Positions 29,617 through 63,792 of a DNA stretch of 64,000 nt are shown one piece after another. This DNA is from Phyllobates terribilis (lineage: Eukaryota). The stretch covers positions 274,846,001 through 274,910,000 of the forward strand of contig NW_027362763.1 of NCBI RefSeq assembly GCF_046119375.1. Direction: 5' to 3'. Position numbers and translations under genes: made by a program. How positions within the stretch are numbered: the first letter of the stretch is position 1; every line of letters starts with the position of its first letter. The notes beneath the pieces are model-generated. The model searched no databases, was not told where the DNA came from, and was given only the letters and a program-made list of their open reading frames with translations.

Positions 29617-29925
29617 CCTCTTAATCATCCCTAGATAGTCACTCCCTGCATGTTTGAACAGCAGAATGGACAACATCCCACCATTGCATAGTGCCAGACT
29701 CAGCACCTTAATGCATTGCCTGGCAACCAGGGAAATCAGTGAGAGACACGGCATCCCACATCCTCACACATCCTACAACCCCAGAGCACGATGTTCCATA
29801 AGATTGGGACAGTCTCCGTGCACACATAGTAGCTCTGCCTCCAGGGTCAGGACCATGACGGTGCCTGCAACTGGAGTAGCGTAGCCCCAGACCTGCTCCA
29901 TTTCCAGGTGGGATCACAGAGCCAT
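29617..29925 (-). mobile_element. Fragment of a dispersed repeat, probably LINE (L1/Tx1-like) ORF2
   Basis: Clear reverse-complement homology to 36865-37205. Translation includes ..GDCPNLMEH..GCGMPCLSL, which loosely resembles the post-RT GGxGxP motif of L1/Tx1 ORF2. Confidence 0.35.
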
Positions 29926-30697
29926 GTCACCTAACAATAACAAATTTCTCTCACAGAGAATAGGGCACAGTACCCCTAAATTAGCAGCTTTCAAATTTAA
30001 CTCACAAAGCATAGGGCAGAGTATCCCTACATTAGCAGCTTACAAATCTCACCCACAGAGCATGTTTCCACATTCATCTGGCAGAATATAATAACAAATT
30101 TCACCCACATAGCATGTGTACACATTTCCCCCATAAAAGCTGATAAAAAATTCCACTCACAGAGCGTTTTCCCATTTTTCTGAGAAAGATTATGAAAAAT
30201 TTCACACCCAGACAATGAGGCACAGAACCCCCAACTGCTCAAAAATGTCTGCACCAATAACGTATGTTACAAATGCCGCCAATGAAAAGCTGGTAGAATG
30301 ATCTTGGATTAAGTTGGTGGTACAAAGCGAGGCTTGATACCTCTAGTTAAAAATTTGACCCAAATTGCATATTTAAACATTTCCCTCTTAGAAGCTGATA
30401 AGTAAATTTCACCCACAGAGCATGTTTTCACATATCCCTGAGAAAGCTGATTAAAAATTTCACAACCAGACAATGGGGCACAGCTCAAAAATGTCTACTC
30501 CAGTACAAATGCCACCAATGAACAGCTGGTAGCATGATCTTGGATCCAGCTGGCGATCCGCAGCAAGGATTGCTTCTGGCAGTCCATTTAAAAATTTCAC
30601 CCACATAGCATGGTCTAGGGTACCCCGCACAGAATCTTTTTAAAAATTTCACCCATAGAGAATATTTTCACATTTCCCCACAGCTCCAAAATGTTAC

Positions 30698-30983
30698 CTT
30701 CAATAGTGTACAAGCAGCCACAGATAAAAAGCTCATAATTTGATTCTGTATACAGCTGGCCGTTCCCTGCAAGGCTTGCTATTGCCAGTTCCAGCCCCTT
30801 TGCCTTGGGACAACTCCCAATGGCCTTGTCTCAGGGTCCCGGGGGGCCTGAGGTGTTTCCCTTGAAAAAAATAGAGTTCAAAGCAGGCAACCAAGCCTAA
30901 ATACTTCAGCTAGGGATAATGGAATTGTACCCTGCTTCTATTTTATTGTTTGTTCGAACTGTTGCCATGATTAAGAAGGGACC
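30698..30983 (+). pseudogene. Degenerate 18S rRNA fragment (conserved flank + V4 + downstream helix) inside hAT-C
   Basis: CAGATAAAAAGCTCATAATTTGATTC, TTGAAAAAAATAGAGTTCAAAGCAGG, ATACTTCAGCTAGGGATAATGGAAT, TTCTATTTTATTG..TTCGAACTG and GCCATGATTAAGAAGGGAC match vertebrate 18S colinearly (GCAGTTAAAAAGCTCGTAGTTGGATC..TTGAAAAAATTAGAGTGTTCAAAGCAGG..GCTAGGAATAATGGAAT..GCCATGATTAAGAGGGAC). Confidence 0.85.
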
Positions 30984-31734
30984 TGGTGGAACGCAAAGTG
31001 AAGGAACTAGAAGAAGGAACTCAATCATTCAATCTCAAAGCACCCACAGGTGGGGATGCAAAGTACACACATGTAACAGAGAATCAAGTTTCTAATCTGG
31101 AGAGGCAACCTGATAAACATATACCACACCTAAAGGCACCGACACACTAATAGAAAGGTAGCAGTCAAGCAAATTAACCGCTTCTCAACTGAGTCAGCAG
31201 CTCATATTGTGAGACTGAATAGCCATCCATGACAATTTAGAGGCTCAGTAATTGGCCAACAATGTAGAGTAAAATTATTTTTTAGGCACACTACTTGTAC
31301 AGACAAGGCTGCCAAGTACACAGAGAATTTTGGGCACAGTACCCCCACAAAAGCGAATAACAAATTTCACCTACAGAGCATGTTTTCACATTTATCCCAC
31401 AGAAGTTGATAAATTTTACCCACAGAGAATGTGGCAGAGCACCCTCTCAGAAGCAGCTTGCAAATTTCACCCACAGACCATGGGGCACAGTACTCCCTCA
31501 GATGCATCTTACAAGTTTCACCCACAGATCAGGGGGCACAATATCCCCACAGCTTCAAAATGTCTACTCTCGTAGCATATGTTCCAAATGCCGCCGAACA
31601 AAAGATTGTAGTATCATCTTGGAGTAGAGTTAAAAATTGCACCCACAGAGAATGTTTACACATTTCCCCCACAGAATCTGATAACAAATTTCACACCCAG
31701 ACAATGAACGACAGTACCCCCACAGGCAGGATCA

Positions 31735-34700
31735 GATGGTGGTGTCAGATGTTGTGGCATAATCATAAAGTTTTGCCATATTTTGGTCATGCTAACTTTG
31801 CCTTCGGAGATGCTGGTGGTGCCCCAGCTGCGTTGGCGACTTCCTCCTCTGCCTCTGACTTATTGTTGCACTGAGCCTCCACAGTCAGGTGGGAAAGCCA
31901 TTAGTAGTTTTTCTGCTAGTGTGTGCCTGTATTAAAACATTTTGTGATCCCTCTCCAGTGATGGAAGTAATAATGGTACATTATTATTGAAGTGAGGATC
32001 CATCAGGATGGCCATCCAGTAATCTGCACTGGTAACAATTCGGGCAACTCGGCGGTGATTCCGCAGGCACAGCAGCATATATTGGCTCATGTGTGCAAGG
32101 CTTCCCAAAGATATCGTCTGGGTACTCTGTATCCACCCAACCATGCTCCAGTGATGCCCGTGAGCTGATCTGAGTGCCACTCTGCTGTGAAAATGGATTT
32201 TCCTTCCCTGCCTCCGCCTCCTCCTCATCATCATGCTCCCATACTGTCCCTTGCTTGTTCAGTTGGGTTCCTGGCTGATGTTGGGACACTAACCCACCCT
32301 CCAAGCAATGTGTGGACAACAGGCCTGATAAATGTGTGAATTGGCTTTTGTTCTCTACCTCCTTTGCCACCACCTTATCCATCATGGCCTGAATTGATTT
32401 TTTCAGCAGGCATATAAATAATATAGTAACGCTGATGATGGCATCATCAGCGCTGGCCATATTGGTGGAATATTCAAAGCAGTGCAACTAGGCAAACACA
32501 ACCCACATGGAGACCCAGTCATTGGCGGTGAAGTGGTGTTGTTCTGCAGTGCGACTCAGCCATGCATGCTATAGATGAAACTCCACTATTGCCTGCTGCT
32601 GCTCACACAGTCTCTCTAGCATATGCAATGTGGAATTCTACCTTGTTGGTAAGTCTCATATCAGCCAGTGAGCGGGAAGCCAGAATTGACAGTGCAGCAC
32701 AGACAGGCGAACAGCAGGGTGAGTGGGCCAAAAGTACACACACACTGCCCACACTTTCAACAGCAGTTCCAACATATGTGGGTAGTTTTTCAGGAAGCTC
32801 TGAACCACCAAGTGGAGCACAAGCGCTTTGCAAGGCATGTGCATCAAACCGGCTAGGCCATAGCTGCTATGAGATTTCACCTGTTATCGCACACAACCAG
32901 ACAGACAAGAGGTTCACTGGCAGCAATGACTCATTTGTCTGCTGTTTGATTCCAGTCCACAACTCCTGCGCGTTATGGGATTTGTCCACCAAGCAGAGTA
33001 GTTTAACCCTGCTGTTCTGTTCGGGTCCATATGACCTGAAATGAAATTTGAGACCCTGCAGATTATTTATTATGTGGATCTGAAACTTGTAATTAATTGA
33101 CTTTTCCTCATTTGAGGGGTTCTTACTATGAGTGTTATTTTTTTTTTTTGTTTATTTTCTGCTTCACGCTGATTGTTACACTTGTACTGTTCGGGTCAAT
33201 ATTAGCCAATAACATTTTATACTGTTCAATAGGTCAGTAAATATTTCTGCCTGCAAAATGTATTTGTTTTCCTGTATACTTCATCTCATTATTCAAAAGG
33301 GTGGAGGTTTCACTGTTCTTATCAGTGAGCAAGTACTCATCCAGTCATTTCTCTTTCAATTCTGTGAGAGAGGACACTGAGCTGTGAATACACATCTTTA
33401 CAGGTATGTAGCATATAAGCTATGCTTTTCTTCTCAAATTATTCAATTCTGTTCTTTAGATTGCATATTGTAAACCCATTTTTTGATTACTGTGCCATGA
33501 TGTAAGCTAATGTGTGCCCATCTAAAGGTACCCTTAGGCTTGTGTAGACTGAACGTTTGTCTAGGAGGGGGTGTACTCTCACTGATGTGATATATTGATT
33601 GCATGGATGAGCATTGAGTACAGATTTGAACAAGGTCTGTTTTAGGGCCCCATCACACACACACAGATACACCCTATGATTGCGATCTTGCAACGTCACA
33701 AGCACGAGGCTCCAGCATTGTAAGCGTAGCGGTCACACTGCACTTTCTTCATCGCTGGGAGAACGATGGGGCCCTTACTGTAGTATATAAGCTCTTTTTG
33801 TTGGGAAACTAGTTATAGATTTTTTTCTCTTTTATTGTTATTTATTTATATAGTTCATTTTTTTCATTATTTTTCATTTGTTGTTTTATAAAATGTTAAC
33901 AAAAAGTTATATTTAGTTAGATTTCATGTTATAGTAATAGAAATCTAAAGCATGTTTGTTATTTGTGTGCAGAATGCTGTAAAGTGAACATAATTGCAAA
34001 CAGCCCGGGTAACCTTTTTCTGAAAAAAATAAATAAAAATAAAGTTTTAATTTCATTTTTCATTTGTTTATGATCAAGCATGTTCACATACAGTTTACTA
34101 ATGAAATAGGTATTCAAATAAAACACTTACAGTAGCTAAAAATCAACATTTTTATAGGTTGGGTCATATTGACCCAAAACAGTACAAGTGTATAATAAAT
34201 GCGATCAGAACAGCAGAATTAAGAATAGCCTGCTGTAGTTTCCTCACGGCTGTGCTTAAGTTGGTGGTTCAGGTATTCCTGTGACTGAATGAGGAGGCAG
34301 TGGAGGATGAAGAGTAAGAGGAGGAAATCTGTACAGATAAACGTCCAGCAATACTAGGTGGTGGTAGGACATGAAGTCGAATGCCTTTCTCCTCTGCCCC
34401 AGCCGCCACTACATTTACGCAGTGGGCAGTTATGGAGAAGTAATGTCCTTTGCTATGCTTACTGGTGCATGTATCGGTGGTTATGTGGACCTTGTCACTG
34501 ATAGCATTGTGTAATTCACACTTGATTTAGTCCACAATATGTTTGTGCAGGGCAGGGATGTCCCACCTGGAAAAATAGTGGCGGCAGGGAACAATGTACT
34601 GCGGGACAGGCACTGACATCATTTTTTTTAAACTGCCAGTCTCCACCAGCCAGAGTGGCAGCATTTCAAAGGCCAGTAATTTTGAAATGCTATCATTCAG

Positions 34701-35947
34701 GACCATGGCTCATGGGTGGCTAGGTTGTAATCTCCTCTTTCTCTTTAGGATTTGGGGGATGGAAAGCTGAACACTTCCATGGGTAGGTGTGGAGATGCTC
34801 GGTGACACTGGTGGTGTTAGTGGTGATGCTGTCACATCCCCTAAATGTGGGTAAGCAGGTGGCCCTGTTGATCATGAGCTGGAATAAGAGACTGAGACCA
34901 TAGCAAAAGAGGGAACAGGAGGAGACTCATATCTGTCAAGGCTTTTAAGATGTGTACTCTACTGCACCTCCTGCTAGGAATTCCGGTGCCTCACCATACA
35001 GGTGGTTCTCAGCTTCAGAACATTAATGCCTTGCTTCAGCTCCTGAGGGCACAGAGTGAAAACCACCTGTCACTTCTCGGAAGAATATTCTCTGAAGAAA
35101 AGCAACGCCAAGAAGCACTTTTGAGTTGTCTTTGGTGTGCTTATATCAGCAATGGGCAGTAGCAGCCGATGTACTAACTAAGGGCTGCCCGCTGTGCCTT
35201 TTCACCAAGCTTCCTCTTTTGCTGTGCTCTTGTGGCAGCATGGCCACCCCCTCTTCCTCCAAACTGTGCATGTCACTAGGATGTGCTCCAGTCTATGTGG
35301 GGTCTAGGACCTCATAATCCCCTGCATCATCTTTCACCAACTCCTCAATCCTGCAACCGTAATGACGACTCCCCAGTTGGCCACTGAGTTTCATCATCAT
35401 CTGACATGTGCTGTTGAGGTCCACTCACTGTGTGCACTAGTTCTCCCACATACTCATCTTCCCACCTAACAAGTGGTTGGGAATTAGTGCACTCCATCTC
35501 TTCCACTTCTGGAGCAGGGGCAGGTGGATGGGCTATGGAACCCAAGTCAGTAGAGTCATCAAAAAGCAGAAGAGACTGGTGCATAACTTGGGGCTCAGAT
35601 TTCTTGGCTGATTTGCAAGGGGGTGAGGTGTAAGCTGGATGACCATGGTCCTCAGGTGCCAACTGTGCAGTTTCTGCACTGGACAGTGTGGAAGATAATG
35701 CAAAGGAACTGGAGACACTCTCAGCCATCCACTCTAACACCTTTTCAACATCTTGTGGCCTCAAGATTTGTGCAGCTGTATTCAGGACTACGAAAGGACG
35801 TAAAACGTCCTGTCGCCTGCGTGCACCAGAGAAAGGTGTTGTAATTGTGCATGTAGCAGGTTCAGAATGACCACGTTCTCTTCCTGCATCAGCTATACCA
35901 CCACCATCAGCAGCTACTGCTACCACGGCCACATCCACGTCCCTCAT
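31735..35947 (-). pseudogene. hAT transposase pseudogene (subfamily C), C-terminus missing, split by a TTAA element
   Basis: Relics of the N-terminus (ORF 35345..35947), the BED region near 35000-35120, KVHITTDTCTSKH, RLICDVEFH-region/HMLELL and SADYWMAILMDP. Many stops and frameshifts; no hATC domain left of about 31735. Confidence 0.85.
33007..34218. mobile_element. Non-autonomous piggyBac-like element with TTAA TSD
   Basis: Ends TTAA|CCCTGCTGTTCTG and CAGAACAGCAGAA|TTAA. Internal inverted repeat TACACTTGTACTGTTCGGGTCAATAT (~33178) / ATATTGACCCAAAACAGTACAAGTGTA (~34168). Removing the element rejoins the hAT frame (TTNLSTAVRKLQQAILKLLCLVDKSH). Confidence 0.85.
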
Positions 35948-35989
35948 TTGATGCTCTCCTCACTTTTGGAACTTGATTTTTTAAACACT

Positions 35990-36590
35990 ACTCGTTAAAA
36001 TCTGACGGAAGAGTACATTTATTTTTTTGCAACTGAACTAGAAAAGACACAGCGATCCTAAAAACGTATGTCTTTGGCCTAGAAATGGCAATTAGATGGC
36101 TGATGCCAATTCTTTATTTCTCAGACTAATAAAAAACACACATCAGCCCTGAAAAATTTGTTTTGGTGACTAGAAATGGCAGCGAAACAGATGAGGCGGT
36201 ATATTGATTTTCAAAAGTACTAGAAAACAAACACCAGGCCAGAAAAAATATTTTGGGGCCTAGAAATAGCAATGAGAAGGCTGATTTGATATATTGATTT
36301 GCAAAAGAAGTGCTAGAAAACCCACACCAGGCCTAAAAAAATTTTGAGGCTTAAAATGGCAACGAGAAATCTGATATGATGATTTGCAAAAGTAGTAGCA
36401 AACACATACCAGGCTTGAAAAATTATTTTTGGGGTCTAGAAATGGGAACAAGAAGTCTGATGTGATATATTGATTTGCAAAACTACTTGAAAACAGACGC
36501 CAGGCCTGAAAAATTATTTTATGGGCCTAGAAATGGCAACAAGAAGGCTGATGTGATATATTAATTTGCAAAAGTACTAGGTCTAAGGGG
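35990..36590. repeat. Degenerate ~60/120-bp 5' subterminal repeats of hAT-C
   Basis: CTAGAAATGGCAA..GCTGATGTGATATATTGATTTGCAAAA and CCAGGCCTGAAAAAT recur upstream of the transposase start. Confidence 0.75.
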
Positions 36591-36805
36591 TAACGTTTCT
36601 CCTTATGGAGAGTGACACACCAGCTCTGGCACGTCAAGGTAAGGAGGCTTATTCGCCGTGCAATGCTCCTCTGGGAAATTTAATATGCAAATTGCCTCTT
36701 CAGAGAATAAGAGGACTTGTACTCTATAGCACAACCTATTGGAAGCAGCAATCCTACAAGTCACTCTCAACCCTTTAACGAGTCGTGCAATATGACTTAG
36801 GATCC
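36591..36805. repeat. Fragment of another dispersed repeat (possibly Penelope-like), truncating hAT-C
   Basis: Abrupt junction with the hAT repeats at about 36590. The family call rests only on recalled resemblance to anuran repeats and is unverified. Confidence 0.25.
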
Positions 36806-36864
36806 TAAGCAGCTTAAGGGCACAGTACTCCCACAGGTGGAGGGGGAAGATGTTAAGAATCATG

Positions 36865-37205
36865 GTTCTGTGCTTCCACCTGGGAATGTATGAGGTCCGG
36901 TGATATGCTACTCCAGTCGCAAGCACCGCCATTGTCTTGACCCCGGAGGTGGAGTTACCATTTGTGCAGGGAAACTGTCCCAATCTTGTGGAGCATTGCG
37001 TTCTGTTGTGGGAGGAGTGAGGACGCGGGATGCCGTGTCTATCACTGATTACTCTGCCCAGGGAAGATGGGATGCTGTCTTCCCTGGTTGCCAGGTAACA
37101 CAGGATGCTGTTTTGTATGGTACTAAGCTAAGCAATGGTGGGATTTTGTACAGTCTTCTGTTGAAGCAAGCATAGAGTGGCTGTTTGGGGATGATTGAGA
37201 GGTAA
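36865..37205 (+). mobile_element. Fragment of a dispersed repeat, probably LINE (L1/Tx1-like) ORF2
   Basis: Inverted homolog of 29617-29925; translates to ..VQGNCPNLVEHCVLLWEE*GRGMPCLSL. Confidence 0.35.
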
Positions 37206-41000: not shown

Positions 41001-43209
41001 TGTTATGCACACGCCCGGGCTGAGCGGCGTGTGCGTGTGATTGTAGTGATTCCACTGGACCGTGCCGGAGAGTGAATGCCTGGAGGGGCTTAACTAGGTA
41101 TTCACCCGATCCGACCTGGGTCGCACGACGGCATACGACGGCAGTGCACCAAGGAGGAACCGAGCAAAGGGACCAGGTGCTACTCCAGGACAGACCCCGG
41201 ACACGGCTGTTGACCCACACAGGGGAATACAGGAACAGACTGGTAGGCTGGCACACAGACTGGTGGGTATAGGCAGGCACGACTGGTATGCAGGCAGGCG
41301 GGTAAGCAGGCAGGGGGGTACAGGCAAGCACAGCTAGAGTGCAGACAGGGAGGCACTAGCAGGTAGGAACACAGGCGGGATAGGACCCAGTACACACTGG
41401 GACTCAGGACTAATACAGGCAGGGGGGTACAGGCAAGCACAGCTAGAGTGCAGACAGGGAGGCACTAGCAGGTAGGAACACAGGCGGGATAGGATCCAGT
41501 ACACACTGGGACTCAGGAACAATACAGGCAGAGGGGTACAGGCAAGCACAGCTAGAGTGCAGACAGGGAGGCACTAGCAGGTAGGGACACTGGCGGGATA
41601 GGACCCAGTACAGACTGGGACTCAGGAACAGAGCCACAGATGTGGCGGACAAACACAGCAGAGTGAGGCCGCCCAGAGAGGTGAGAGAGAACAGGGCAGG
41701 ACAAGGCCGCCTGGAGCGGTGAGCAAGAGTAGAGCAGGACAAGTCCGCCAGGAGCGGTGAACAAAGGATCAAAGCTGAGCGAGACTGCTGGAGCAGTGAG
41801 CAAGAGTAAAGCAGGACGAGGCCGCCTGGAGCGGTGAGCAAGAGTGGAGCGAGACTGCCGGAGCAGCGAGCAAAAGGGTCAGAGCGGAGCAAGGCTGCCG
41901 GAGCAGCGAGCAAAGGAGTCAGAGCAGGCTAGAACCGCCGGAGCGGTAAGCAAAGGAGTCAGAGCAGACTAGAACCGCCGGAGCGGTGAGCAAAGGAGTC
42001 AGAGCAGACTAGAACCGCCGCAGCGGTGAGCAAAGGAGTCAGAGCAGACTAGAACCGCCGGAGCGGTGAGCAAAGGAGTCAGAGCAGACTAGAACCGCCG
42101 GAGCGGTGAGCAAAGGAGTCAGAGCAGGCTAGAACCGCCGGAGCAGTGAGCAAAGGAGTCAGAGCAGGCAAGGCTGAGTAGGGGGGACAGGGCTCTGTTA
42201 ACACGGAACAGACAGGAAGGGAAAGGCAGAGCCAGACACCCACAGGGTACTTGCAGTGAAGTAGCGAGTGGACCACAAACTCACAAACGGGAGTACAGAG
42301 ACAACAGGCAGGAGTCAGGTACGAGTTCAGACTCTGCAGAAAAAGGAAAGGAACGGACATAGAGAAAAGACAGATGAAAGATAGGAGAGAGTACAGACTG
42401 GAACTGAGTGTACGGACGAGACCAACACAGGAGTGGGACACAAGAGCGGATCTGGGAATACGGCCCCCAGAGAGGCGGGACAAACAGGCAAGGAGCGTGT
42501 TCAGACAGGACAGACAAGATACAGGAACGGATCTAGGTAATCGGCCCCTAGAAGGAGGGAGGAACAGGCTAGGAGCGTGTTCAGACAGGACAGACAAGAT
42601 ACAGGAACGGATCTAGGTAATCGGCCCCTAGAAGGCGGGAGGAACAGGCTAGGAGCATGTTCAGACAGAACAGACAAGATACAGGAGCAGGTCTGGGTAA
42701 TCGGCCCCCAGAGAGGCGGGACGAACAGGCAAGGAGCGTGTTCAGACAGGCCTGGAAATACAGCCTCCAGGAAAGGCAGCAGGCAAGAGTACACAGACAG
42801 GACTCAGTTCAGACACGGGAACTGATACCGCAAGGCAGGAGACATAGACAGGACTCAGTTCAGACACGGGAACTGATACCGCAAGACAGGAGACAAAGAA
42901 CGGGACCTGGCATCTTCAGAGTGAAGGCACACACTGAATGAAACACTATGCTCAGGCAGGGATAGATGGGAGCAGCTGAGGTATATACCAGGTGACAGAC
43001 AGCAATAGGCTGAGGACGCACAAGGGGTGTGACCCACAGCAGGTACAAAAAGCAGGAAGTGATCGGGCGCCGCCCTTAAGCAGCAGAAACAGACACAAAC
43101 AGACAGCATGGAGGGAAGCCAGAGAGACATTCTGGACTGGAGATCAAGTGCGCGCTCTTGCACAGTGGGAGATGGACCACCATGCAAGGACGCCGCCAGG
43201 TATGTTACA
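41001..43209 (-). repeat. 3' LTR (2209 bp) containing 109-, 40-, 80- and 51-bp tandem arrays
   Basis: On the minus strand it begins TGTAACA right after the PPT and ends CATAACA; direct repeat of 45390-47404. Confidence 0.9.
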
Positions 43210-45251
43210 GTACCCCCCCCCTTTCGCCCCCTCTTCTTCAGGCCTGCCAGAATCTTCCGCAGGGAATTCGAGGACCAGTCGTTCACTTCAAGGAGATCAC
43301 TTCCACTGTCCACAGGAAAAACTGATCTCATCTGGTTAGCTAGGATGCTACCTCCTATCCAGCCATCCTCAGCAACAGACGAAACGGGTGGAGTACCAGG
43401 AACAGCACACAAGGAAGTCTCTCTCCACATATTTTCAGGTGGCACCCCAGAGGGTACAGGAGACAACTGGAAGTCCTTCACCGGGTTGGAGGGGGACAGA
43501 GACTTGGGGGTAATCTCTGCTTCGAGGTACATCTTGTCAAGCTCACGGGAAGAAATAGACGGGTTATCAGGTACATAATGAGGAAAAGTCACTGTCTCTT
43601 TGTTATCTGGTGGTACCCCGGAGGATTCAGGAAACAACTGGAGGTCCTCCGCCGGGTCAGAAGAGTGCAGAGGCTCAGAGAAAACATCTGCTTCAGAGTA
43701 CACTAGGTCGGACTCACTGGACGAAGCAGGCGAGGTATCGGGTACCGAGTATAGGAAAGTCTCTGTCCATTCACCACCAGGTGGCACCCCGAAGGGTTCT
43801 GGAGTCAACTGGCGGTCCTCCGCCTGGTCAGAGGGGTGTAGAGACTCACGGGTAACCTCTGCTTCAGAGTACACTAGGTCGGACTCACTGGACGAAGCAA
43901 GCGAGGTATCAGATCTAGGATATAGGAGAGTCTCTGTCCATTCACCACCAGGTGGCACCCAGAAGGGTTCTGGAGACAACTGGAGGTCCTCCGCCTGGTC
44001 GGAGGGGTGTAGAGACTCGGGAGTAACCACTGCTTCGGAGTACACTAGGTTGGACTCAGTGGACGAAGCGAGCGAGGTATCAGGTACAGAGTATAGGAGA
44101 GTCTCTGTCCTTTCGCTACCAGGTAGCACCCCGAAGGGTTCTGGGGACAACTGGAGGTCCTCCGCCTGGTCGGAGGGGTGTAGAGACTCGGGAGTAACCA
44201 CTGCTTCGGGGTACACTAGGTTGGACTCAGTGGACGAAGCGAGCGAGGTATCAGGTACAGAGTATAGGAGAGTCTCTGTCCTTTCGCTACCAGGTAGCAC
44301 CCCGAAGGGTTCAGGAGACAACTGGAGGTCCTCCGCCTGGTCGGAGGGGTGTAGAGACTCGGGGGTAACTACCACTTTGGGGTACCCATTGTCAGGCTCA
44401 CAGGACGAAGCGGACAAAGCATCGAGTACCAGGTGTAGAGAAGTCTCTCTCCATTTGTCATCGAGTGGTATCCCGGAGGATTCAGGAGGCAACAGGGGGT
44501 CCTCCACCAGGTAGTAGAGGTGCACAGACTCTGAGGTAACCACAGCTTTGGAGCATCCTTGGACATGCACACCGGTTAAAGTGGGTGAAGCATCTGATGC
44601 CGGGTGCAGGAAGTTCTCCTGTGTGGAGTCTGGATGGGCAGAAGTCTCTTTGGGCAGGAGAACTGGTGCACTACCCACGCACATTAACCGTTGGGGCTTC
44701 TCCGGGATACAGGGAGATGAAGCTTCAGTAGGGACTTCAAGGTTGGGGTCAGGAGGTCTCAGGGAGGACAGACCCTGGCGTGACGGCTTGCCTCTACGTC
44801 TAGCACGTCTGGACTGCCTCTTGAGGTTGGGAGAAGTATTCCGGAAAGCGTAGTCACCCTGTGAGGATTCTGGGTGGGCAGTAGTCTCATTGGGCTGGAG
44901 GACTATTGCGCTACCCACACACATTACCCGTCGGGGCTGCTCCGGGATATTGGGAAGTGAAGCTTCAGCAGGGGCTTCAGGGTTAGGGTCCTCGAAGACC
45001 ATAGGAAAGGCCACCAGGAAGGCCTGCAGGTCAAGGACGACAGGATCCCATGCTTCCCATAGGGGGGTGACCCATTTCAAGGCATCACCCGCTAGGTAGT
45101 CAATCATAAAGGCCACTTTAGCCCAATCGGAAGGAAAATAGAGAGGGTAGGCCTTAAAGTGTAGCATGCATTGCTCCACAAATGCACGACACTGTCTTGG
45201 ATCCCCATAGTAACGAGGCGGATCCGCAGGAACGAGAGCTGATAGATCCAT
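42855..45251 (-). CDS. Gag-derived protein: DUF4939 (RTL1/PEG10/LDOC1-like) N-terminus plus seven 57-aa Pro/Glu/Ser-rich repeats; reads into the 3' LTR
   Basis: PPRYYGDPRQCRAFVEQCMLHF..FPSDWAKVAFMIDYLAGDALKWVTPLWE..LQAFL..F..VFEDP is the sushi/RTL Gag motif. The 171-bp repeat period is visible (43981 vs 44152). 798 codons without a stop. Confidence 0.85.
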   Translation of the reverse strand: MDLSALVPADPPRYYGDPRQCRAFVEQCMLHFKAYPLYFPSDWAKVAFMIDYLAGDALKWVTPLWEAWDPVVLDLQAFLVAFPMVFEDPNPEAPAEASLPNIPEQPRRVMCVGSAIVLQPNETTAHPESSQGDYAFRNTSPNLKRQSRRARRRGKPSRQGLSSLRPPDPNLEVPTEASSPCIPEKPQRLMCVGSAPVLLPKETSAHPDSTQENFLHPASDASPTLTGVHVQGCSKAVVTSESVHLYYLVEDPLLPPESSGIPLDDKWRETSLHLVLDALSASSCEPDNGYPKVVVTPESLHPSDQAEDLQLSPEPFGVLPGSERTETLLYSVPDTSLASSTESNLVYPEAVVTPESLHPSDQAEDLQLSPEPFGVLPGSERTETLLYSVPDTSLASSTESNLVYSEAVVTPESLHPSDQAEDLQLSPEPFWVPPGGEWTETLLYPRSDTSLASSSESDLVYSEAEVTRESLHPSDQAEDRQLTPEPFGVPPGGEWTETFLYSVPDTSPASSSESDLVYSEADVFSEPLHSSDPAEDLQLFPESSGVPPDNKETVTFPHYVPDNPSISSRELDKMYLEAEITPKSLSPSNPVKDFQLSPVPSGVPPENMWRETSLCAVPGTPPVSSVAEDGWIGGSILANQMRSVFPVDSGSDLLEVNDWSSNSLRKILAGLKKRGRKGGGTVTYLAASLHGGPSPTVQERALDLQSRMSLWLPSMLSVCVCFCCLRAAPDHFLLFVPAVGHTPCASSAYCCLSPGIYLSCSHLSLPEHSVSFSVCLHSEDARSRSLSPVLRYQFPCLN
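43213..43230 (-). promoter_or_regulatory. Polypurine tract
   Basis: GGGGCGAAAGGGGGGGGG lies 3 nt before the TG of the 3' LTR on the minus strand. Confidence 0.85.
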
Positions 45252-45377
45252 CTGGACGGTGCGTAATTCGCCTGGAACTCAGCTAAGGAAAAAAAAAATT
45301 ATTTATTTATTTTAATGCATGTATTCGCTGGAAAACTTCTCAGAGAGCGAAGGCCGTGGGGCACAACGGGAACCATG

Positions 45378-45387
45378 GCCTGAGCAT
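45378..45387 (-). promoter_or_regulatory. Self-priming PBS candidate (ATGCTCAGGC)
   Basis: Located 2 nt inside the 5' LTR boundary. No TGG tRNA-type PBS is present. It is the exact reverse complement of GCCTGAGCAT, which starts 30 nt downstream of the LTR TATA box. Confidence 0.75.
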
Positions 45388-45389
45388 GC

Positions 45390-47404
45390 TGTTATGCACA
45401 CGCCCGGGCTGAGCGGCGTGTGCGTGTGATTGTAGTGATTCCACTGGACCGTGCCGGAGAGTGAATGCCTGGAGGGGCTTAACTAGGTATTCACCCGATC
45501 CGACAAGGGTCGCACGACGGCATACGACGCCAGTGCACCAAGGAGGAACCGAGCAAATGGACCAGATGCTACTCCAGGACAGACCCCGGACACGGCTGTT
45601 GACCCACACAGGGGAATACAGGAACAGACTGGTAGGCTGGCACACAGACTGGTGGGTATAGGCAGGCACGACTGGTATGCAGGCAGGCGGGTAAGCAGGC
45701 AGGGGGGTACAGGCAAGCACAGCTAGAGTGCAGACAGGGAGGCACTAGCAGGTAGGAACACAGGCGGGATAGGACCCAGTACACACTGGGACTCAGGAAT
45801 AATACAGGCAGAGGGGTACAGGCAAGCACAGCTAGAGTGCAGACAGGGAGGCACTAGCAGGTAGGGACACTGGCGGGATAGGACCCAGTACACACTGGGA
45901 CTCAGGAACAGAGCCTCAGATGTGGCGGACAAACACAGCAGAGTGAGGCCGCCCAGAGAGGTGAGCGAGAACAGGGCAGGACAAGGCCGCCTGGAGCGGT
46001 GAGCAAGAGTAGAGCAGGACAAGGCCGCCAGGAGCGGTGAACAAAGGATCAAAGCTGAGCGAGACTGCTGGAGCAGTGAGCAAGAGTAAAGCAGGACGAG
46101 GCCGCCTGGAGCGGTGAGCAAGAGTGGAGCGAGACTGCCGGAGCAGCGAGCAAAAGGGTCAGAGCGGAGCAAGGCTGCCGGAGCAGCGAGCAAAGGAGTC
46201 AGAGCAGGCTAGAACCGCCGGAGCGGTAAGCAAAGGAGTCAGAGCAGACTAGAACCGCCGGTGCGGTGAGCAAAGGAGTCAGAGCAGACTAGAACCGCCG
46301 GAGCGGTGAGCAAAGGAGTCAGAGCAGACTAGAACCGCCGGAGCGGTGAGCAAAGGAGTCAGAGCAGACTAGAACCGCCGGAGCGGTGAGCAAAGGAGTC
46401 AGAGAAGACTAGAACCGCCGGAGCGGTGAGCAAAGGAGTCAGAGCAGACTAGAACCGCCGGAGCGGTGAGCAAAGGAGTCAGAGCAGGCTAGAACCGCCG
46501 GAGCAGTGAGCAAAGGAGTCAGAGCAGGCAAGGCTGAGTAGGGGGGACAGGGCTCTGTTCACATGGAACAGACAGGAAGGGAAAGGCAGAGCCAGACACC
46601 CACAGGGTACTTGCAGTGAAGTAGCGAGTGGACCACAAACTCACAAACGGGAGTATAGAGACAACAGGCAGGAGTCAGGTACGAGTTCAAACTCTGCAGA
46701 AAAAGGAAAGGAACGGACATAGAGAAAAGACAGATGAAAGATAGGAGAGAGTACAGACTGGAACTGAGTGTACGGACGAGACCAACACAGGAGTGGGACA
46801 CAGGAGCGGGTCTGGGAATACGGCCCCCAGAGAGGCGGGACAAACAGGCAAGGAGCGTGTTCAGACAGGACAGACAAGATACAGGAACGGATCTAGGTAA
46901 TCGGCCCCTAGAAGGCGGGAGGAACAGGCTAGGAGCATGTTCAGACAGAACAGACAAGATACAGGAGCAGGTCTGGGTAATCGGCCCCCAGAGAGGCGGG
47001 ACGAACAGGCAAGGAGCGTGTTCAGACAGGCCTGGAAATACAGCCTCCAGGAAAGGCAGCAGGCAAGAGTACACAGACAGGACTCAGTTCAGACACGGGA
47101 ACTGATACCGCAAGACAGGAGACAAAGAACGGGACCTGGCATCTTCAGAGTGCAGGCACACACTGAATGAAACACTATGCTCAGGCAGGGATAGATGGGA
47201 GCAGCTGAGCTATATACCAGGTGACAGACAGCAATAGGCTGAGGACGCACAAGGGGTGTGACCCACAGCAGGTACAAAAAGCAGGAAGTGATCGGGCGCC
47301 GCCCTTAAGCAGCAGAAACAGACACAAACAGACAGCATGGAGGGAAGCCAGAGAGACATTCTGGACTGGAGATCAAGTGCGCGCTCTTGCACAGTGGGAG
47401 ATGG
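45390..47404 (-). repeat. 5' LTR, truncated at its outer end
   Basis: Direct repeat of 41001-43175; identity stops after GAGATGG at 47404. Confidence 0.9.
47177..47216 (-). promoter_or_regulatory. LTR core promoter: TATATA (47211-47216) and predicted start (~47186)
   Basis: The minus strand reads CCTGGTATATAG..(30 nt)..GCCTGAGCAT; the same arrangement is at 42948-42987 in the other LTR. Confidence 0.6.
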
Positions 47405-50047
47405 CTGCCATGAATATTGGCCCCCACCCAGGCTAGAAACACCAGCCGTCAGCCGCCCCAGAAATGGCGCATCCATAGTATGAGCCAATTCTTGCACTTA
47501 GCCTCGCTCTTCCCACTGCCCTGTTGCGGTGGCAGTGGGGTAATAGGGCTGGGGTTGATGTCAGCTTATAATGCCAGCTGACATCAAGCCCAGGTTAGTA
47601 ATGGAGAGGCGTCTTTAAGACACCCCCATTACTAACTCCATAGTCAAAGTTAAAAAAAAGCACAAACACCCAGAATGAAGTCCTTTAATTGAAATAAACA
47701 CACAATTCTTTAATGTTCTAAATTAAACCATACTTACCATCACGCCCATTCCAGCTGAAGCCAATGTCTTCTGCAATAAAAGTAAAATAATAAACCAACC
47801 TCATCCTTACCTTTCCATGGTTCCCAGGATGGCTTCAGCTCTGCTACATTCACATGACAGGCTGGATCGCAGCCGAAAGCTGCCATCCAGCTTGCCATGC
47901 CGCAGACACTGAGAAGCGCAGGCATGTTTGCTCTCCTCAGTGTCTGGCTGTGTCTCCTGCACATGCGGTGTGTGTGAGAGAATTCTCCTGCGCTAACTGA
48001 AAGCGCAGGAGATTTCTCCCACACTGTCAGTGATGTGAATTAGGTGAGCTGAGTTCATTGGGCATGAACTCGGCTCATCAGGATGCCATCACAGCCAGAC
48101 ACTAAGGAGCGCAAGCATGCCTGCGCTTCTCAGTGTCTGCGGTATGGCAAGCTGGATGGCAGCTTTCGGCTGCGATCCAGCCTGTCATGTGAGTGTAGCA
48201 GAGCTGAAGCTGTCCTGGGAACCATGGAATAGTAAGGATGAGGTTGCTTTATTATTTTACTTTTATTGCAGAAGACATTGGCTTCAGCTGGAATGGTCAT
48301 GATGGTAAGTATGGTTTAATTTAATTATTAAAAAATTGTGTGTTTATTTCAATTAAAGGACTTTATTCTGGGTGTTTTTTTTTTAAATACTTTACTAGAA
48401 ATTCATGGCGGTCATGTCTAATATTGGCATGACCCCATGAATTTCAAGCTTAGAGCCAGCTGAGAATACCAAGCTGGCCCTAACCCCTTTATTAACCAGT
48501 GAGCAACCGCACCAGGGCCCTAGATGAGTTGGGTACAGCGCCAGAAGTTGGCGCTTCTATTAACGCGCCATTTTCTGGGGTGGCTGCGGACTGCAATTTG
48601 CAGCGGTTGGGGGCCCAGAAAGCTTGGGTCTCCCTGCGCTGCAGATTCCAGCCCCCAGCTGCCTAGTTGTACCTGGCTGGACACAAAAGTCGGGCGAAGC
48701 CCCACATATAATTTTTTAAAATATTTCATGAAATTCATGAAATAATAAAAAAAAAGGGCTTCCCTATATTGTTTTGTTCGGCCAGGTACAAATATGCCAC
48801 TGGTGGTGGGGGCAGCTCGTTCCTGCCTGCTGCACCTGGCTGGACACAAAAATAGGGCGAAGCCCCACATCAATTTTTTTTTAATTATTTCATGAAATTC
48901 ATGAAATGGAATTATAAGCTGACATCAACCCCAGCCCTATTACCCCACTGCCACTGCTACAGGGCAGTGGGAAGAGTGAGGCTAAGTGCCAAAATTGGTG
49001 CATCCTATGGATGTGCCATTCCTGGGGCGGCTGACTGCTGGTGTTTCTAGCCTGGGAGGGGACCAATATTCATGGCACCCTTCCTGGGCTGTTAATATCA
49101 GCCCCCAGCTGTCCGCCTAGCCTTTGCTAGCTACTAAAATAGGAGGGACCCCACGTAATTTTTTTTTTTTGAGTCCCCCATTTTAATTGCTAGTAAAGGC
49201 TAGGTATTCAGCTGGGGGCTGATATTAGTAGCCTGGGAAGCTCTGTGGGTATTACCCCCTTCCTAGGCTTCAAACATCTCCCTCAGCCGTCTGCTTAACC
49301 TCCGCTAGAGACTAAAATTACAGGGAACCCCACGCCAATTTTTTTTTAAATAAATCCTTTATTTTAACACTAAATGACAAGTACAGTAATCAACACTATC
49401 ACTGTACTTATTATATATGTGACTGACATGTTTCTATGTTTCTAATCTATGTGTGATGCTCTATTCTTTCTGTTCTAAATTGTCTGGTACCGGAGTATGC
49501 TGCTGATGAATTGCCGGCTGGCTTTTTTAAAGAGACAAAAACACTATATATTTTTTTTTTTAAATCCTTTATTTTAACACTAAATAACAAGTACAGTAAC
49601 CAACACTGTCACTGTACTTATCATATATGTGACTGACATGTTTCTATCTATCTAATCTATGTGTGATGTTCTATACTTTCTGTTCTAAATTGTCGGGTAC
49701 CGGTGTATGCCGCTGATGAATTGCCGGCTGGCTTTTATAAAGAGACGGGTGCATGAAAATCAGAGGGCACTGGTGTGTTCCAAGTGCCCTGCTATGTTTT
49801 TCATGCACCCTCCTATATACCCTGTCTGCCTTTATATTCTGCCTGCCTGACGTTTAATTGAGCACCGTTCCCATCGATTTGGGCAATTTTTGACCTTCTG
49901 CTGACCGCCGGGGGGGACCACCAGAAAAATGCTTGAGTTTCCCATAGACTTACATTGGGCTCGTTGCTTGGGTCGAGCACCCAAGTATTCCAATGTGCTC
50001 GACCCGAGCTTCGAGCACCCGAGCATTTTAGTGCTTGCTCATCACTA
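47405..50047. mobile_element. Left-truncated non-autonomous hAT element with a large internal palindrome
   Basis: Right end CGAGCACCCGAGCATTTTAGTGCTTGCTCATCACTA (rc TAGTGATGAGC). Inverted arms at 47655-47952/48090-48385 and 47405-47572/48912-49078. Confidence 0.75.
49345..49745. repeat. ~210-bp tandem duplication
   Basis: AAATCCTTTATTTTAACACTAAAT...GAATTGCCGGCTGGCTTTT..AAAGAGAC occurs at about 49352 and 49562. Confidence 0.85.
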
Positions 50048-60111: not shown

Positions 60112-63100
60112 TTACTCTCCCCAGGATGACACAGGGGTAGAAAAGTCGTTTCGGATCCATGATTTGTTCATCTTTATGAACGTGAGTCTGTCTACATTAT
60201 CAGTGGAGAGCCGCGTGCGCTTATCTGTCAGCACACCACCAGCAGCGCTGAACACACGTTCAGACAGAACGCTGGCTGCGGGGCATGACAAGATCTCCAA
60301 GGCGTAAGTGGCTAGCTCCGGCCATTTATCCAGATTGGAAGCCCAAAAAGAGCAAGGGTCCAGTGACACAGTCGTGGCTTCAATGTTTACTTGGAGATAC
60401 TCCTGTACCATCGTCTCTAGGCGTTGACTATGTGTCAGACTTCTTGTCTCCTGTGGCCTTGCAAAGGATGGGCTAAAAAAGTGGTGAAATGATTCCGCAA
60501 AATTGATGTTACCAGCAGATACTGTGGTTCTGTTACGGTTTGAGTGCTGAACACTTGACGGTCCCACGGATGGCAAGTTGGAACTGTGAGATTCACTACG
60601 TGCACCACTGGTATTTTGTGGAAAAGCACATGTAAGATTCTGCAACAGTCTCTGCTGATACTCCTGCATGCGTGCATCCCTTTCTATGGCAGGAATAATT
60701 TCTGCAAATTTACTTTTGTACCGGGGATCTAACAGTGTGGCAACCCAGTAGTCAGGATTATTTCTAATTCTCACAATTCGAGGGTCATGTTGCAGGTAGT
60801 GCAGCAAGAAGGCACTCATGTGTGTTGCGCATCCAGGAGCACCAAGTCCCTGTTGTGTTGGTGGCGAGGTAACAATCATGCTTCCTTCCTCTGTCCTCTC
60901 CCCCCAACCTCGCACAACAGAAATGTGATCAAGGTCTCCCTCATCTGATGAGTCTTCCATCAGTTCGTCCTCCACTTCTTCCTGGGCTCCTGCACCTTCC
61001 TCACTAGTTTGGCTGCTACCATGCGCCCTGGTAAAATCATCTCCCCCACCCTCACATGCCTGCCGCCTTGGTGCTGCCGACCGTCTGGACCTTGCAGATG
61101 TTAGCCCTTCCGCATACAACTCCTCCTCCTCTACTTCCTCCACCTCCTCTTGTGCCACCACCTGACTCCGAATTCTGTTTAACATGTGCTCCAGCATGTA
61201 AATCACCGGAATAGTCATGCTGATAATGGCATCATCAGCACTAAACATCTTCGTCGCCATTTCAAAACTGTGCAGAAGGGTGCATAGGTCCCTGATCTGA
61301 GACCACTCCTCCAGCGTGATTTGCCCCACCTCTGAATCTCGTTGGCCCAGGCTATACGTCAGAACGTATTGCACCAGGGCTTGTCGGTGCTGCCACAGTC
61401 GCTGCAACATGTGCAGAGTTGAATTCCACCGGGTAGGCACATCGCATTTTAGCCGGTGAAGTGGCAGGCCCAACGACTTCTGTAGAGATGTAAGTCGCTG
61501 AGCTGCGGAATGCGAACGGCGGAAGTGAGCACACAGCGACCGTGCCCTCTGCAGAAGGCCATCTAGTCTGGGATAGTGGGCTAAAAATTGCTGGACAACC
61601 AGGTTCAACACGTGAGCCATACAAGGCACGTGTGTGACATTGCCCCGGCGAAGGGCCGCACCCAGGTTTGCAGCATTGTCGCACACGGCCTTCCCTGGTT
61701 TCAGGTCCAGTGGAGACAACCATTCATGAAATTGGTTCTCCAGAGCTGACCACAACTCCTCAGCTGTGTGACTCACATTTCCCAGACATTTCAATGTAAA
61801 AACCGCCTGATGACGTTGAGCCCTACTGCCAGCATAGTAAGGAGGTGTGCAGGATCCCTTCTGCGCAGTTAGAAAGCTTGTGGCATGACCAGACAGGCTT
61901 TGGGTGCAGGTGGAAGACCGAGAGGAGGTTGAGGAGGCAGAAGCAGTGGAGGAACTTTGACATAAAGAGGATTGACGCACAACTCGTGGGGACGGCAAGA
62001 CTTGGACAGCAGCCCCTTGTCTTGCTGTCACCATAGTTACCCAGTGCCCAGTCAGCGACATGTAACGCCCCTGTCCATGCCTACTCGTCCAAGTGTCTGT
62101 GGTGAAATGCACCCTGTCACACACAGAGTTTCTCAAAGAAGCGGTGTGGTTGTGTGCGACATGCTGGTGGAGCGCAGGCACATCTTTCTTTGAGAAGTAG
62201 TGCCGACTGGGCATCTGGTACTGGGGCACTGCGACGGACATAAGGTCTCGAAAATCCTCTGTGTCCACCAGGCGGAAAGGCAGCATTTCTGTAGCCAAGA
62301 GCTTGCAGATGGTGAAATTCAACCTCTTAGCTTTCTCATGGCTAGGAGGAAATGGTCTTTTACTTGTCCACATCTGAGCGACCGAGGGCTGGCTATTGTG
62401 CTTAGACGGGGTTGATAAGGGTGTCCCCGGCAAACTGCCGGTCTGTGAGGAAGATGCAGGCGGACATGTTAGGTTGCCTTGATCCAAAGGTGGTGCTATC
62501 GATGTCGGACAGCGCTCAAGACCAGCTGGTGTTACCACCTCCAAAGAAAATGATGACCTGCCAATCACACTGGCTGTTGCGGGTAAAGAGGTGGCAGGTC
62601 TGCGCCCCAAAACAGGTGTGACTGCTGTCCCCCCAGTCACAGAGGATGAAGAGGCCGCGGATGCACAAGATATGGCAGACGGTGGTTGGCCCAGCCGGCT
62701 AGGCCGCATTGTAGCACACTGAGCTTCCCACTGCAACTTATGCTTCATGTCCATGTGCCGGTTCATGCATGAAGTACTCAAACTATGTATTTTTTGGCCT
62801 CTACTTAGCTTTTGCTGACAAATGTTACAGATAACACGAGTTGGGTCATCTTTATTGATCTGAAAAAATGCCCAGGCTATGCAAGGCTTAGCACCCATGC
62901 GACCTGAAGAGCCACCACGACTTGTGGTGAGAGGCAGAGTTGTGTTTGAGGATGCAGTTGTTGACGTGCTTCCAGTACTACGTCTCTGTCCAGGAAGGCG
63001 CAACCTGACCTCGTCGTCACTAGCATCTTCCTCCACCTCCTCTGCTGACCTCATCTCTTGGCTGACTGTGGGTTGACAGTAAGTGGGATCTCCGACCTCA

Positions 63101-63792
63101 TCATCATCACCCTGTGCGTTATCACACCCGTCGTCCTCAGAGCCAACCTGTTCCTGCCCTGACAAAAAACTAAAGTTGTCGCTCCAATCAGGTATTTGAG
63201 TCTTATCATCGTCTTCCTCATTGTCTCCACCAACAGGAGTTACAGTTTGGGAATGAGGGTCTACATTACGGTCAGAACCTTCTGCGTCTGGTCCTGGATC
63301 CGACTCATAAAGATTCTGGGCATCAGTGCAGATCATTTCCTCGTCTGGATTCACAGAAGCGCTGGAGTCGACCTCTGATTCCCAGGCTATAGTATGAGTA
63401 AACAGCTCTGCAGACTCAACCATCTGTTCTACCTCATACTCAGACGGGCAGCTGGAGATTTGGGAGCTGTGAGGAAGCAAGTTAGATTTGGGTGACACCT
63501 TTGAGGACTGGAGTATTTGTGATGTTGAAGTTGATGTGGAGGAGAGCCCACTTAAAGGAGCACTTGATATCCGTTGAAGCACCTGCTGTTTTTGTGCCTC
63601 ATCTGGAATTTGTAGCGATTGGCGTGGCCGTAAGAAAGGGATCTTATCACATTGTCCGCTAAAAGAAGTAGACATTTTAGTTTGGCTGGAAGATGGTCTT
63701 TCTTCTGCACCTACCCCACGGACACAACCTTTTTTCCCCTTCCCAACACGCCTATTCCCCTTTCCACCAGCAGCAGGCCTTTTTCCACTCAT
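60112..63792 (-). CDS. Intact hAT transposase (BED zinc finger, DDE core, hATC dimerisation domain), 1226 aa
   Basis: Uninterrupted ORF with BED CNIC..RHMDMKH, catalytic FTTDTW and VCDNAAN, CxxH (CMAH), TRWNS, and SCPAASVLSERVFSAAGG..LTFIKMN. Confidence 0.95.
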   Translation of the reverse strand: MSGKRPAAGGKGNRRVGKGKKGCVRGVGAEERPSSSQTKMSTSFSGQCDKIPFLRPRQSLQIPDEAQKQQVLQRISSAPLSGLSSTSTSTSQILQSSKVSPKSNLLPHSSQISSCPSEYEVEQMVESAELFTHTIAWESEVDSSASVNPDEEMICTDAQNLYESDPGPDAEGSDRNVDPHSQTVTPVGGDNEEDDDKTQIPDWSDNFSFLSGQEQVGSEDDGCDNAQGDDDEVGDPTYCQPTVSQEMRSAEEVEEDASDDEVRLRLPGQRRSTGSTSTTASSNTTLPLTTSRGGSSGRMGAKPCIAWAFFQINKDDPTRVICNICQQKLSRGQKIHSLSTSCMNRHMDMKHKLQWEAQCATMRPSRLGQPPSAISCASAASSSSVTGGTAVTPVLGRRPATSLPATASVIGRSSFSLEVVTPAGLERCPTSIAPPLDQGNLTCPPASSSQTGSLPGTPLSTPSKHNSQPSVAQMWTSKRPFPPSHEKAKRLNFTICKLLATEMLPFRLVDTEDFRDLMSVAVPQYQMPSRHYFSKKDVPALHQHVAHNHTASLRNSVCDRVHFTTDTWTSRHGQGRYMSLTGHWVTMVTARQGAAVQVLPSPRVVRQSSLCQSSSTASASSTSSRSSTCTQSLSGHATSFLTAQKGSCTPPYYAGSRAQRHQAVFTLKCLGNVSHTAEELWSALENQFHEWLSPLDLKPGKAVCDNAANLGAALRRGNVTHVPCMAHVLNLVVQQFLAHYPRLDGLLQRARSLCAHFRRSHSAAQRLTSLQKSLGLPLHRLKCDVPTRWNSTLHMLQRLWQHRQALVQYVLTYSLGQRDSEVGQITLEEWSQIRDLCTLLHSFEMATKMFSADDAIISMTIPVIYMLEHMLNRIRSQVVAQEEVEEVEEEELYAEGLTSARSRRSAAPRRQACEGGGDDFTRAHGSSQTSEEGAGAQEEVEDELMEDSSDEGDLDHISVVRGWGERTEEGSMIVTSPPTQQGLGAPGCATHMSAFLLHYLQHDPRIVRIRNNPDYWVATLLDPRYKSKFAEIIPAIERDARMQEYQQRLLQNLTCAFPQNTSGARSESHSSNLPSVGPSSVQHSNRNRTTVSAGNINFAESFHHFFSPSFARPQETRSLTHSQRLETMVQEYLQVNIEATTVSLDPCSFWASNLDKWPELATYALEILSCPAASVLSERVFSAAGGVLTDKRTRLSTDNVDRLTFIKMNKSWIRNDFSTPVSSWGE

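Follow-up and report, generated by a model that had tools for sequence, protein, structure and literature searches.

We analysed a 64,000-nucleotide stretch of the 10.6-Gb genome of the frog Phyllobates terribilis (contig NW_027362763.1, positions 274,846,001 to 274,910,000), hereafter the window, in which the minus strand carries a long terminal repeat (LTR) retrotransposon about 6.4 kb in length. A single open reading frame (ORF) of 798 amino acids (aa) begins in the internal region of the element (43210-45389) and is open from 45251 to 42855. According to the original prediction, this ORF is an intact minimal Gag fused to seven in-frame acidic Pro-rich repeats in a still-mobile element, with its frame kept by selection for a protein. 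We found that the frame is kept open by selection and that the Gag lobe is under purifying selection; the repeats, however, evolve neutrally at the protein level.

At the N-terminus of the ORF, aa 9-88 (44988..45227; this and all features of the element are on the minus strand) match the capsid N-terminal lobe (DUF4939) by profile, by alignment to Gag-Pol and by fold prediction. With the whole 798-aa protein as query, DUF4939 scored 25.3 bits at aa 11-86, which is below the cut-off of 29, whereas with aa 1-100 as query the score was 30.8 bits, above the cut-off, and the minimal Gag of the original prediction stands. The lobe is followed by two diverged PNxE..MCVGSA blocks (44544..44987), recognised as a 240-nt duplication, that begin at aa 89 and aa 169, 80 codons apart, with an Arg-rich patch in between. 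Next are about seven 171-bp (57-aa) acidic Pro/Ser-rich repeats (43401..44553), which Tandem Repeats Finder reported as period 171 and 6.5 copies at 43436-44553. Six units (aa 294-579) are spaced exactly 57 codons apart in a unit alignment and are 57-97% identical, and a seventh begins near aa 237, as read off the ORF translation. The repeat region is composed of 18% D+E, 13% P and 16% S, and it has no stops in the ORF frame as compared to 4-30 in each of the other five frames. Both the diverged blocks and the seven in-frame repeats are thus present as predicted. The segment before the LTR (43215..43400) matches autonomous copies and consists of a chromodomain relic (aa 618-679, 43% identity to the autonomous copy L131, E 3.6e-6) and the parental pol end (..GLKKRGRKGG).

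Profile and sequence comparisons found no reverse transcriptase (RT), RNase H, integrase or active protease in the element ORF, and the Retrotrans_gag and Ty3_capsid profiles match autonomous Gags and not the window ORF. When the ORF of an older subfamily was aligned to frog Gag-Pol, the capsid C-terminal part and the zinc knuckle were found to be eroded. Because this older subfamily aligns collinearly to Gag-Pol, the block region appears to be what erosion has left of the C-terminal half of the capsid in Gag. The claim that the ORF has no capsid C-terminal half, zinc knuckle or pol therefore holds for the eroded Gag part, but the chromodomain relic shows that some pol is left.

The lobe is 50% identical to a frog database Gag-Pol (P0001, E 1e-26) and 51-59% identical to autonomous frog chromoviruses. 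Its predicted structure is helical (predicted local distance difference test score 87) and resembles Arc, Ty3 and Ty1 capsid lobes with Z scores of 7.9-8.9 (8.9 for dArc1 46-122 and 7.9 for Ty3 capsid 37-108), which is modest for a helical bundle. As the structural scores were tied with those of C-lobes, the N-lobe identity rests on sequence collinearity. A sequence search of the PDB gave nothing below E 0.35, and Foldseek gave nothing at E ≤ 0.001, although its top rows were nonetheless capsid lobes. Homologue searches with aa 1-700 of the window protein, and with the middle region of the older-subfamily ORF at near or shorter lengths, came back empty; these searches are word-based and do not show absence, and a profile-free HMMER scan did recover relatives that they missed.

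The 3' LTR (41001..43209, 2.2 kb) has TG..CA ends and contains tandem arrays with periods of 109, 40, 80, 51 and 16 bp, and its first 355 bases carry the tail of the ORF. The 5' LTR (45390..47404), delimited by LTR comparison, lacks its outer ~34 bp where an inverted-repeat element starts; with this LTR clipped, the target duplication is not readable at the window copy. The two LTRs differ by 20 substitutions in 1935 aligned bases. In the leader (45252..45389) there are a putative primer-site position, a 25-codon upstream ORF headed by the parent's Gag start codon at 45376 (aligned with the leader of the autonomous copy L140), an A/T tract and, after this tract, a T-run plus AG that resembles a splice acceptor about 31 nt 5' of the main ATG. 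The polypurine tract (PPT; 43210..43239), also found in autonomous copies, includes a G-run of variable length (9 G in the window).

The ORF had been predicted to run about 117 codons into the 3' LTR, and we counted 118. Among young copies, 29 of 30 are open up to the PPT, and the LTR tails of these 29 are 1 codon (10 copies), 21 codons (2), 76 codons (16) or, in the window alone, 118 codons long. The length of the tail is set by the length of the PPT G-run, which fixes the frame at LTR entry, and the additional 42 codons in the window trace to a private change at one codon that is a stop in the copy L071. The pol of the autonomous parent terminates at the same place, with a stop at LTR nt 3-5. 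We therefore rejected LTR read-through as a conserved feature, as G-run length polymorphism and one private change explain it; the LTR tail is incidental. At another locus, L044 (oriented 6325 and 8022), the ORF of the copies there leaves the capsid lobe to enter a short tandem array of LTR type, in which a 13-residue repeat continues without a stop for 401 and 659 codons. The L044 arrays may be another arbitrary in-frame tail or a local rearrangement.

The alignments indicate that the element is non-autonomous and arose by deletion from a Ty3/Gypsy chromovirus family of the same genome. The older-subfamily ORF is collinear with frog Gag-Pol over aa 9-414 (30%, E 3e-41), through the capsid N-lobe, the eroded C-lobe and zinc knuckle, a protease without DSG and the RT leader, and over its final 67 residues it aligns with autonomous chromoviruses of the same genome, at their chromodomain and pol end (50%, E 2e-12). 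The older subfamilies have a longer unique stretch where the window element has part of its repeats; in the window subfamily the protease relic has been lost in addition, and in one young, amplified subfamily an in-frame deletion has removed most of the chromodomain relic (the S33 subfamily, missing most of this region, did not enter the chromodomain tally). The PPT and the Gag start context are common to the older subfamilies and the autonomous chromoviruses, whose pols end in the same GLKKRGRKGGVL; given this shared parental pol end, the absence of a stop before the PPT is inherited. The autonomous elements (L130-L143, P0001/P0011), which we take to be Sushi-like, share the Gag start context, capsid lobe, PPT, pol end and stop position with the frog element but, in contrast to it, encode a full capsid, a DSG protease, RT, RNase H, integrase and a chromodomain; the Gag ORF of L131, for example, has 321 codons. 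We examined 14 of 114 Gag matches for an autonomous partner, and between the element and the nearest family found the LTR starts differ (TGTAGCA against TGTAACA) and the LTR bodies are unrelated.

The lobes of six subfamilies form a cluster that excludes every one of the 14 autonomous lobes sampled (support 100), which argues against import of the lobe by recombination from the sampled copies. Two database proteins, source-assigned to Dendrobates tinctorius and Ranitomeya imitator, have the decayed protease in common with the family of the window element, as well as a 4-residue deletion, and cluster with it (support 100, on long branches); accordingly, the non-autonomous lineage probably predates this species. 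By eye, the 171-bp unit had seemed to derive from the integrase C-terminus, but the best nhmmer match (E 0.23) covers ~40 bp of the linker between integrase and chromodomain and the score of the alignment falls inside the range of 300 shuffles, so this origin is unsupported. Most of the unit could not be traced to the parent by nhmmer and alignment against autonomous chromovirus sequence. Four of the frog database proteins (P0001, P0003, P0006 and P0011) have retroelement ORFs fused to EGF, SPRY and dehydrogenase domains, and these host-domain fusions are probably gene-model artefacts.

The window subfamily has at least 40 dispersed copies at 99% identity in the internal region (all 40 that were scored, out of 3,102 candidates). 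In sister copies, both LTRs were whole in 12 of 12, the LTR pairs were 0.2-0.9% apart and a 5-bp target duplication was exact in 10 of 12, with 1-2 mismatches in the other two. This low LTR divergence together with the target duplications indicates that the window subfamily moved recently, by integrase; the element is thus still mobile as predicted at the level of the subfamily, but this particular copy lacks the outer ~34 bp of its 5' LTR. Related subfamilies range down to 80% identity and have 1-8 repeat units per element, and several loci are tandem LTR-internal-LTR-internal arrays. A protein query from the older subfamily gave 48,717 first-look candidates and two young types gave 3,102 and 1,578, which are not copy numbers. 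The copies that we analysed were chosen as best DNA matches, and L040 and L047, which have no element head, were dropped.

We examined selection on the frame in alignments of at most 12 copies from each of six subfamilies. Intact ORFs were found in 2 of 27 older copies, in 5, 4 and 3 of 10 copies in three middle-aged subfamilies and in 10 of 10 copies of another young one; among diverse units of older copies, 12 of 38 have an open ORF. For the older loci, 3 of 30 without a PPT were dropped and 3 more of other length were left out, and in the 24 that were aligned private changes are neutral (dN/dS, the ratio of nonsynonymous to synonymous rates, 0.94, with 25 stops). In contrast, changes between subfamilies include no stops among 288 (about 8 expected) as compared to 17 among 594 private changes (Fisher p 0.0014). 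The commonest codon is never a stop in any column of the six subfamilies, and their modal ATG-to-PPT lengths, which range from 1259 to 2015 nt, all share one frame. Thus, the open frame is kept by selection in the amplifying lineages.

Capsid-lobe variants present in at least 3 of 48 copies have a dN/dS of 0.32, as compared to 1.04 for private variants (p 0.0008), and in this shared-variant analysis the lobe differs significantly from other regions (p 0.0006). Between the six subfamilies the lobe has a dN/dS of 0.52 (binomial p 0.004), which holds after dropping any one subfamily. Regions outside the lobe have dN/dS values of 0.6-1.6 between subfamilies and 0.6-2.5 for shared variants, none significantly below the private baseline. 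Between the family and autonomous copies, dN amounts to 0.31-0.41 for the lobe as against 0.77-0.87 for the protease region, at a synonymous difference (pS) of ~0.7 in both, whereas two autonomous copies compared with each other have about equal values in the lobe and protease (dN 0.10 and 0.13). The capsid N-lobe is therefore under moderate purifying selection (dN/dS 0.3-0.5). For the repeats, dN/dS is 1.02 among the units of the window, 1.03 for variants common to at least 3 elements and 0.99 between two young subfamilies; two stops are shared among the pooled repeat units and may be recurrent changes. The repeats are neutral at the protein level, so that the predicted selection is borne out for the open frame and the Gag lobe and not for the repeats, which also vary between 1 and 8 units.

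To account for an open frame with a conserved head and a drifting remainder, we propose that the single ORF acts in cis, with the N-lobe binding the Gag of an intact relative and bringing its own RNA into that relative's particle, and we give this reading about an even chance of being right. The element RNA would be translated, and the lobe would fold first and stay tied to its own RNA via the ribosome during the ~400-600 further codons. Because the lobe would be held on the RNA only while the chain is unfinished, any stop-free sequence could serve as the tail. The lobe would then bind the helper capsid, as the N-lobe-only RTL8 binds PEG10 (PMC11684626), and the helper would be the source of capsid, protease, RT and integrase. 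Another benefit of reading to the LTR would be escape of the RNA from nonsense-mediated decay, and the repeats would be tolerated duplications that pass only when their length is divisible by three. If thousands of copies shared the protein in trans, by comparison, selection on it in any one lineage would be weak.

Several observations weigh against this cis model. In the subfamily analysis, dN/dS in the lobe is not significantly below that of private variants (Fisher p 0.085) or of non-capsid regions (p 0.17), the value between the two youngest subfamilies (0.67) is not significant, and the protease-bearing stretch itself has a dN/dS of 0.63 (p 0.07) between two older subfamilies. Silent sites are almost saturated between the element and the nearest autonomous family found, which has only the PPT, the leader and ~110 bp of LTR (76%) in common with the element, and part of the lobe conservation may for this reason predate the loss of autonomy. 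Each of the 35 leaders that we read has 1-5 upstream ATGs, and a loose acceptor-like motif, judged without a null model, is present in 35 of 37 leaders, so more than one initiation route may be possible; a spliced mRNA without the primer site could not be the packaged RNA, and the simple cis model would break. Finally, RTL8 inhibits rather than aids particle release (PMC11684626).

The main rival, which we consider a real possibility although clearly not the probable one, is that the frame is open merely for RNA stability (escape from nonsense-mediated decay, or export), with a protein that does little and a lobe conservation that is old or weak. The sequence past the lobe drifts near dN/dS 1 yet has no stops, as RNA stability alone would predict, the non-significant contrast between capsid and non-capsid regions among subfamilies (p 0.17) fits it as well, and Ty1 RNA bearing an early stop is unstable without Gag (PMC4974528). 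However, it does not explain the synonymous excess in the shared variants of the lobe (p 0.0008, and p 0.0006 against other regions) or why the lobe has diverged from the parent half as much as the protease, and the separate clustering of the six subfamily lobes (support 100) means that recombination import from the sampled autonomous copies is not the cause.

A role in trans, in which the protein would serve as a capsid decoy or hold back the helper in the manner of RTL8 or Ty1 p22, perhaps being made from a spliced RNA, is unlikely. The half-capsid architecture is that of RTL8/LDOC1 (PMC11011659, PMC11684626) and an acceptor-like motif lies 5' of the main ATG, but a helper-dependent element has here amplified massively (48,717, 3,102 and 1,578 candidates, again not copy numbers), selection follows the element's own amplifying lineages and not a fixed host locus, and single copies decay (an open ORF in 2 of 27 older ones). 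The further suggestion that the protein restricts the helper is hard to reconcile with candidate copies in the thousands and with recent bursts that recurred.

That the ORF is a recent relic that has not yet decayed, open through youth and choice of copies, is very unlikely. The copies were indeed selected as best DNA matches and the majority of older ones are broken (an open ORF in 12 of 38 diverse units), but the protease relic, at 28-33% identity to autonomous copies and with silent sites almost saturated, is nevertheless free of stops among the commonest codons of the subfamilies, and decayed forms with the same 4-residue deletion are found in proteins source-assigned to two other frog genera; codon, stop and divergence analyses largely refute this reading. 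We regard as highly improbable the idea that selection maintains the acidic Pro-rich repeats as a disordered scaffold with its own function. In its favour, a disordered linker may be selected for its length or charge while dN/dS stays near 1, the frame is maintained over units that are 57-97% identical, and the related protein P0003 has, by eye, another short repeat in a comparable position. Against it, repeat dN/dS is 0.99-1.03, elements have 1-8 units each, and tandem arrays form just as easily in the LTR, where the periods of 109, 40, 80 and 16 are not divisible by three.

Returning to the cis model, a more specific form of it, which we put forward tentatively and as less than probable, is a "hook on a leash": a long-lived lineage, present in several frog genera, in which a docking half-capsid is followed by an arbitrary in-frame tail that holds the hook to the translating RNA. 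If true, this lineage would be a mobile, selfish counterpart of the half-capsid domesticated in mammals as RTL8/LDOC1 and would show a route by which half-capsid genes arise ahead of domestication; if the cis model holds, half-capsid proteins would have a selfish origin independent of mammalian domestication. The repeats and LTR read-through, the most striking features, are by-products. The family offers thousands of natural replicates in which selection on an open frame and selection on protein sequence come apart within one ORF, and it opens to testing the question of how non-autonomous LTR elements gain packaging by their helpers. The family may also add to the size of these frog genomes.

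Also in the window, a nested inverted-repeat element (47400-49240, arms of 177, 234 and 58 bp) lies at the clipped end of the 5' LTR, and related sequence (89-95%) flanks other loci such as L053, L057 and L066. An open hAT transposase of 1226 aa with a BED finger and dimerisation domain is encoded at 60112-63792 (minus strand), and a second hAT copy, 96% identical over 3 kb, is at the left window end (570-2909, minus strand), where its ORF ends at 779 aa and it adjoins a 110-bp satellite (3026-17939, 135.6 copies, 93% matches). At 29686-37128, long inverted arms ~7 kb apart surround a 200-aa ORF (35345-35947) with a by-eye likeness to the N-terminus of a hAT protein; this is probably a decayed DNA transposon.

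With its TG..CA LTR pair, PPT, 5-bp duplication in sister copies and loss of enzymes, the element is a non-autonomous LTR retrotransposon. The family was not described in the literature that we searched, which left most subscription papers outside its coverage, and a repeat-library (Repbase/Dfam) entry may exist. RTL8 and LDOC1 likewise have an N-lobe-only capsid followed by diversified or disordered sequence (PMC11011659, PMC11684626), and the frog ORF matches DUF4939; they are, however, fixed, immobile, domesticated host genes, whereas the frog element is multi-copy, mobile and LTR-bearing, and no single frog copy shows host-level conservation. The mouse IAP 1Δ1 intracisternal A-particle element has an internal deletion and an in-frame gag-pol fusion ORF, depends on a helper, is highly successful and reportedly acts in cis (PMC6466679). 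The frog element resembles it as a deletion derivative with one fusion ORF and a need for a helper, and by analogy may also act in cis. IAP 1Δ1 is a simple deletion of retroviral origin, in contrast to this derivative of a Ty3/Gypsy chromovirus, which keeps only the capsid N-lobe, with the remainder at ~30% identity and repeats gained. Among plants, TR-GAG elements are non-autonomous LTR elements of <4 kb with a single Gag ORF (PMC4350172), and the non-autonomous wheat RLG_Quinta and Sabrina have a single Gag-bearing ORF, which in Quinta is Gag plus an unknown domain, with the PPT and LTR ends of its helper (PMC11302176, PMC9744471). The frog element also has a single Gag-like ORF without enzymes, but it is longer (~6.4 kb) and appears to keep half a capsid and not a full packaging-competent Gag precursor. 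The plant elements are proposed Gag suppliers, whereas the vertebrate half-capsid would not be expected to form particles by itself. Non-autonomous LTR elements that retain Gag are thus already known (overview in PMC13570524), and the frog half-capsid form adds a variant.

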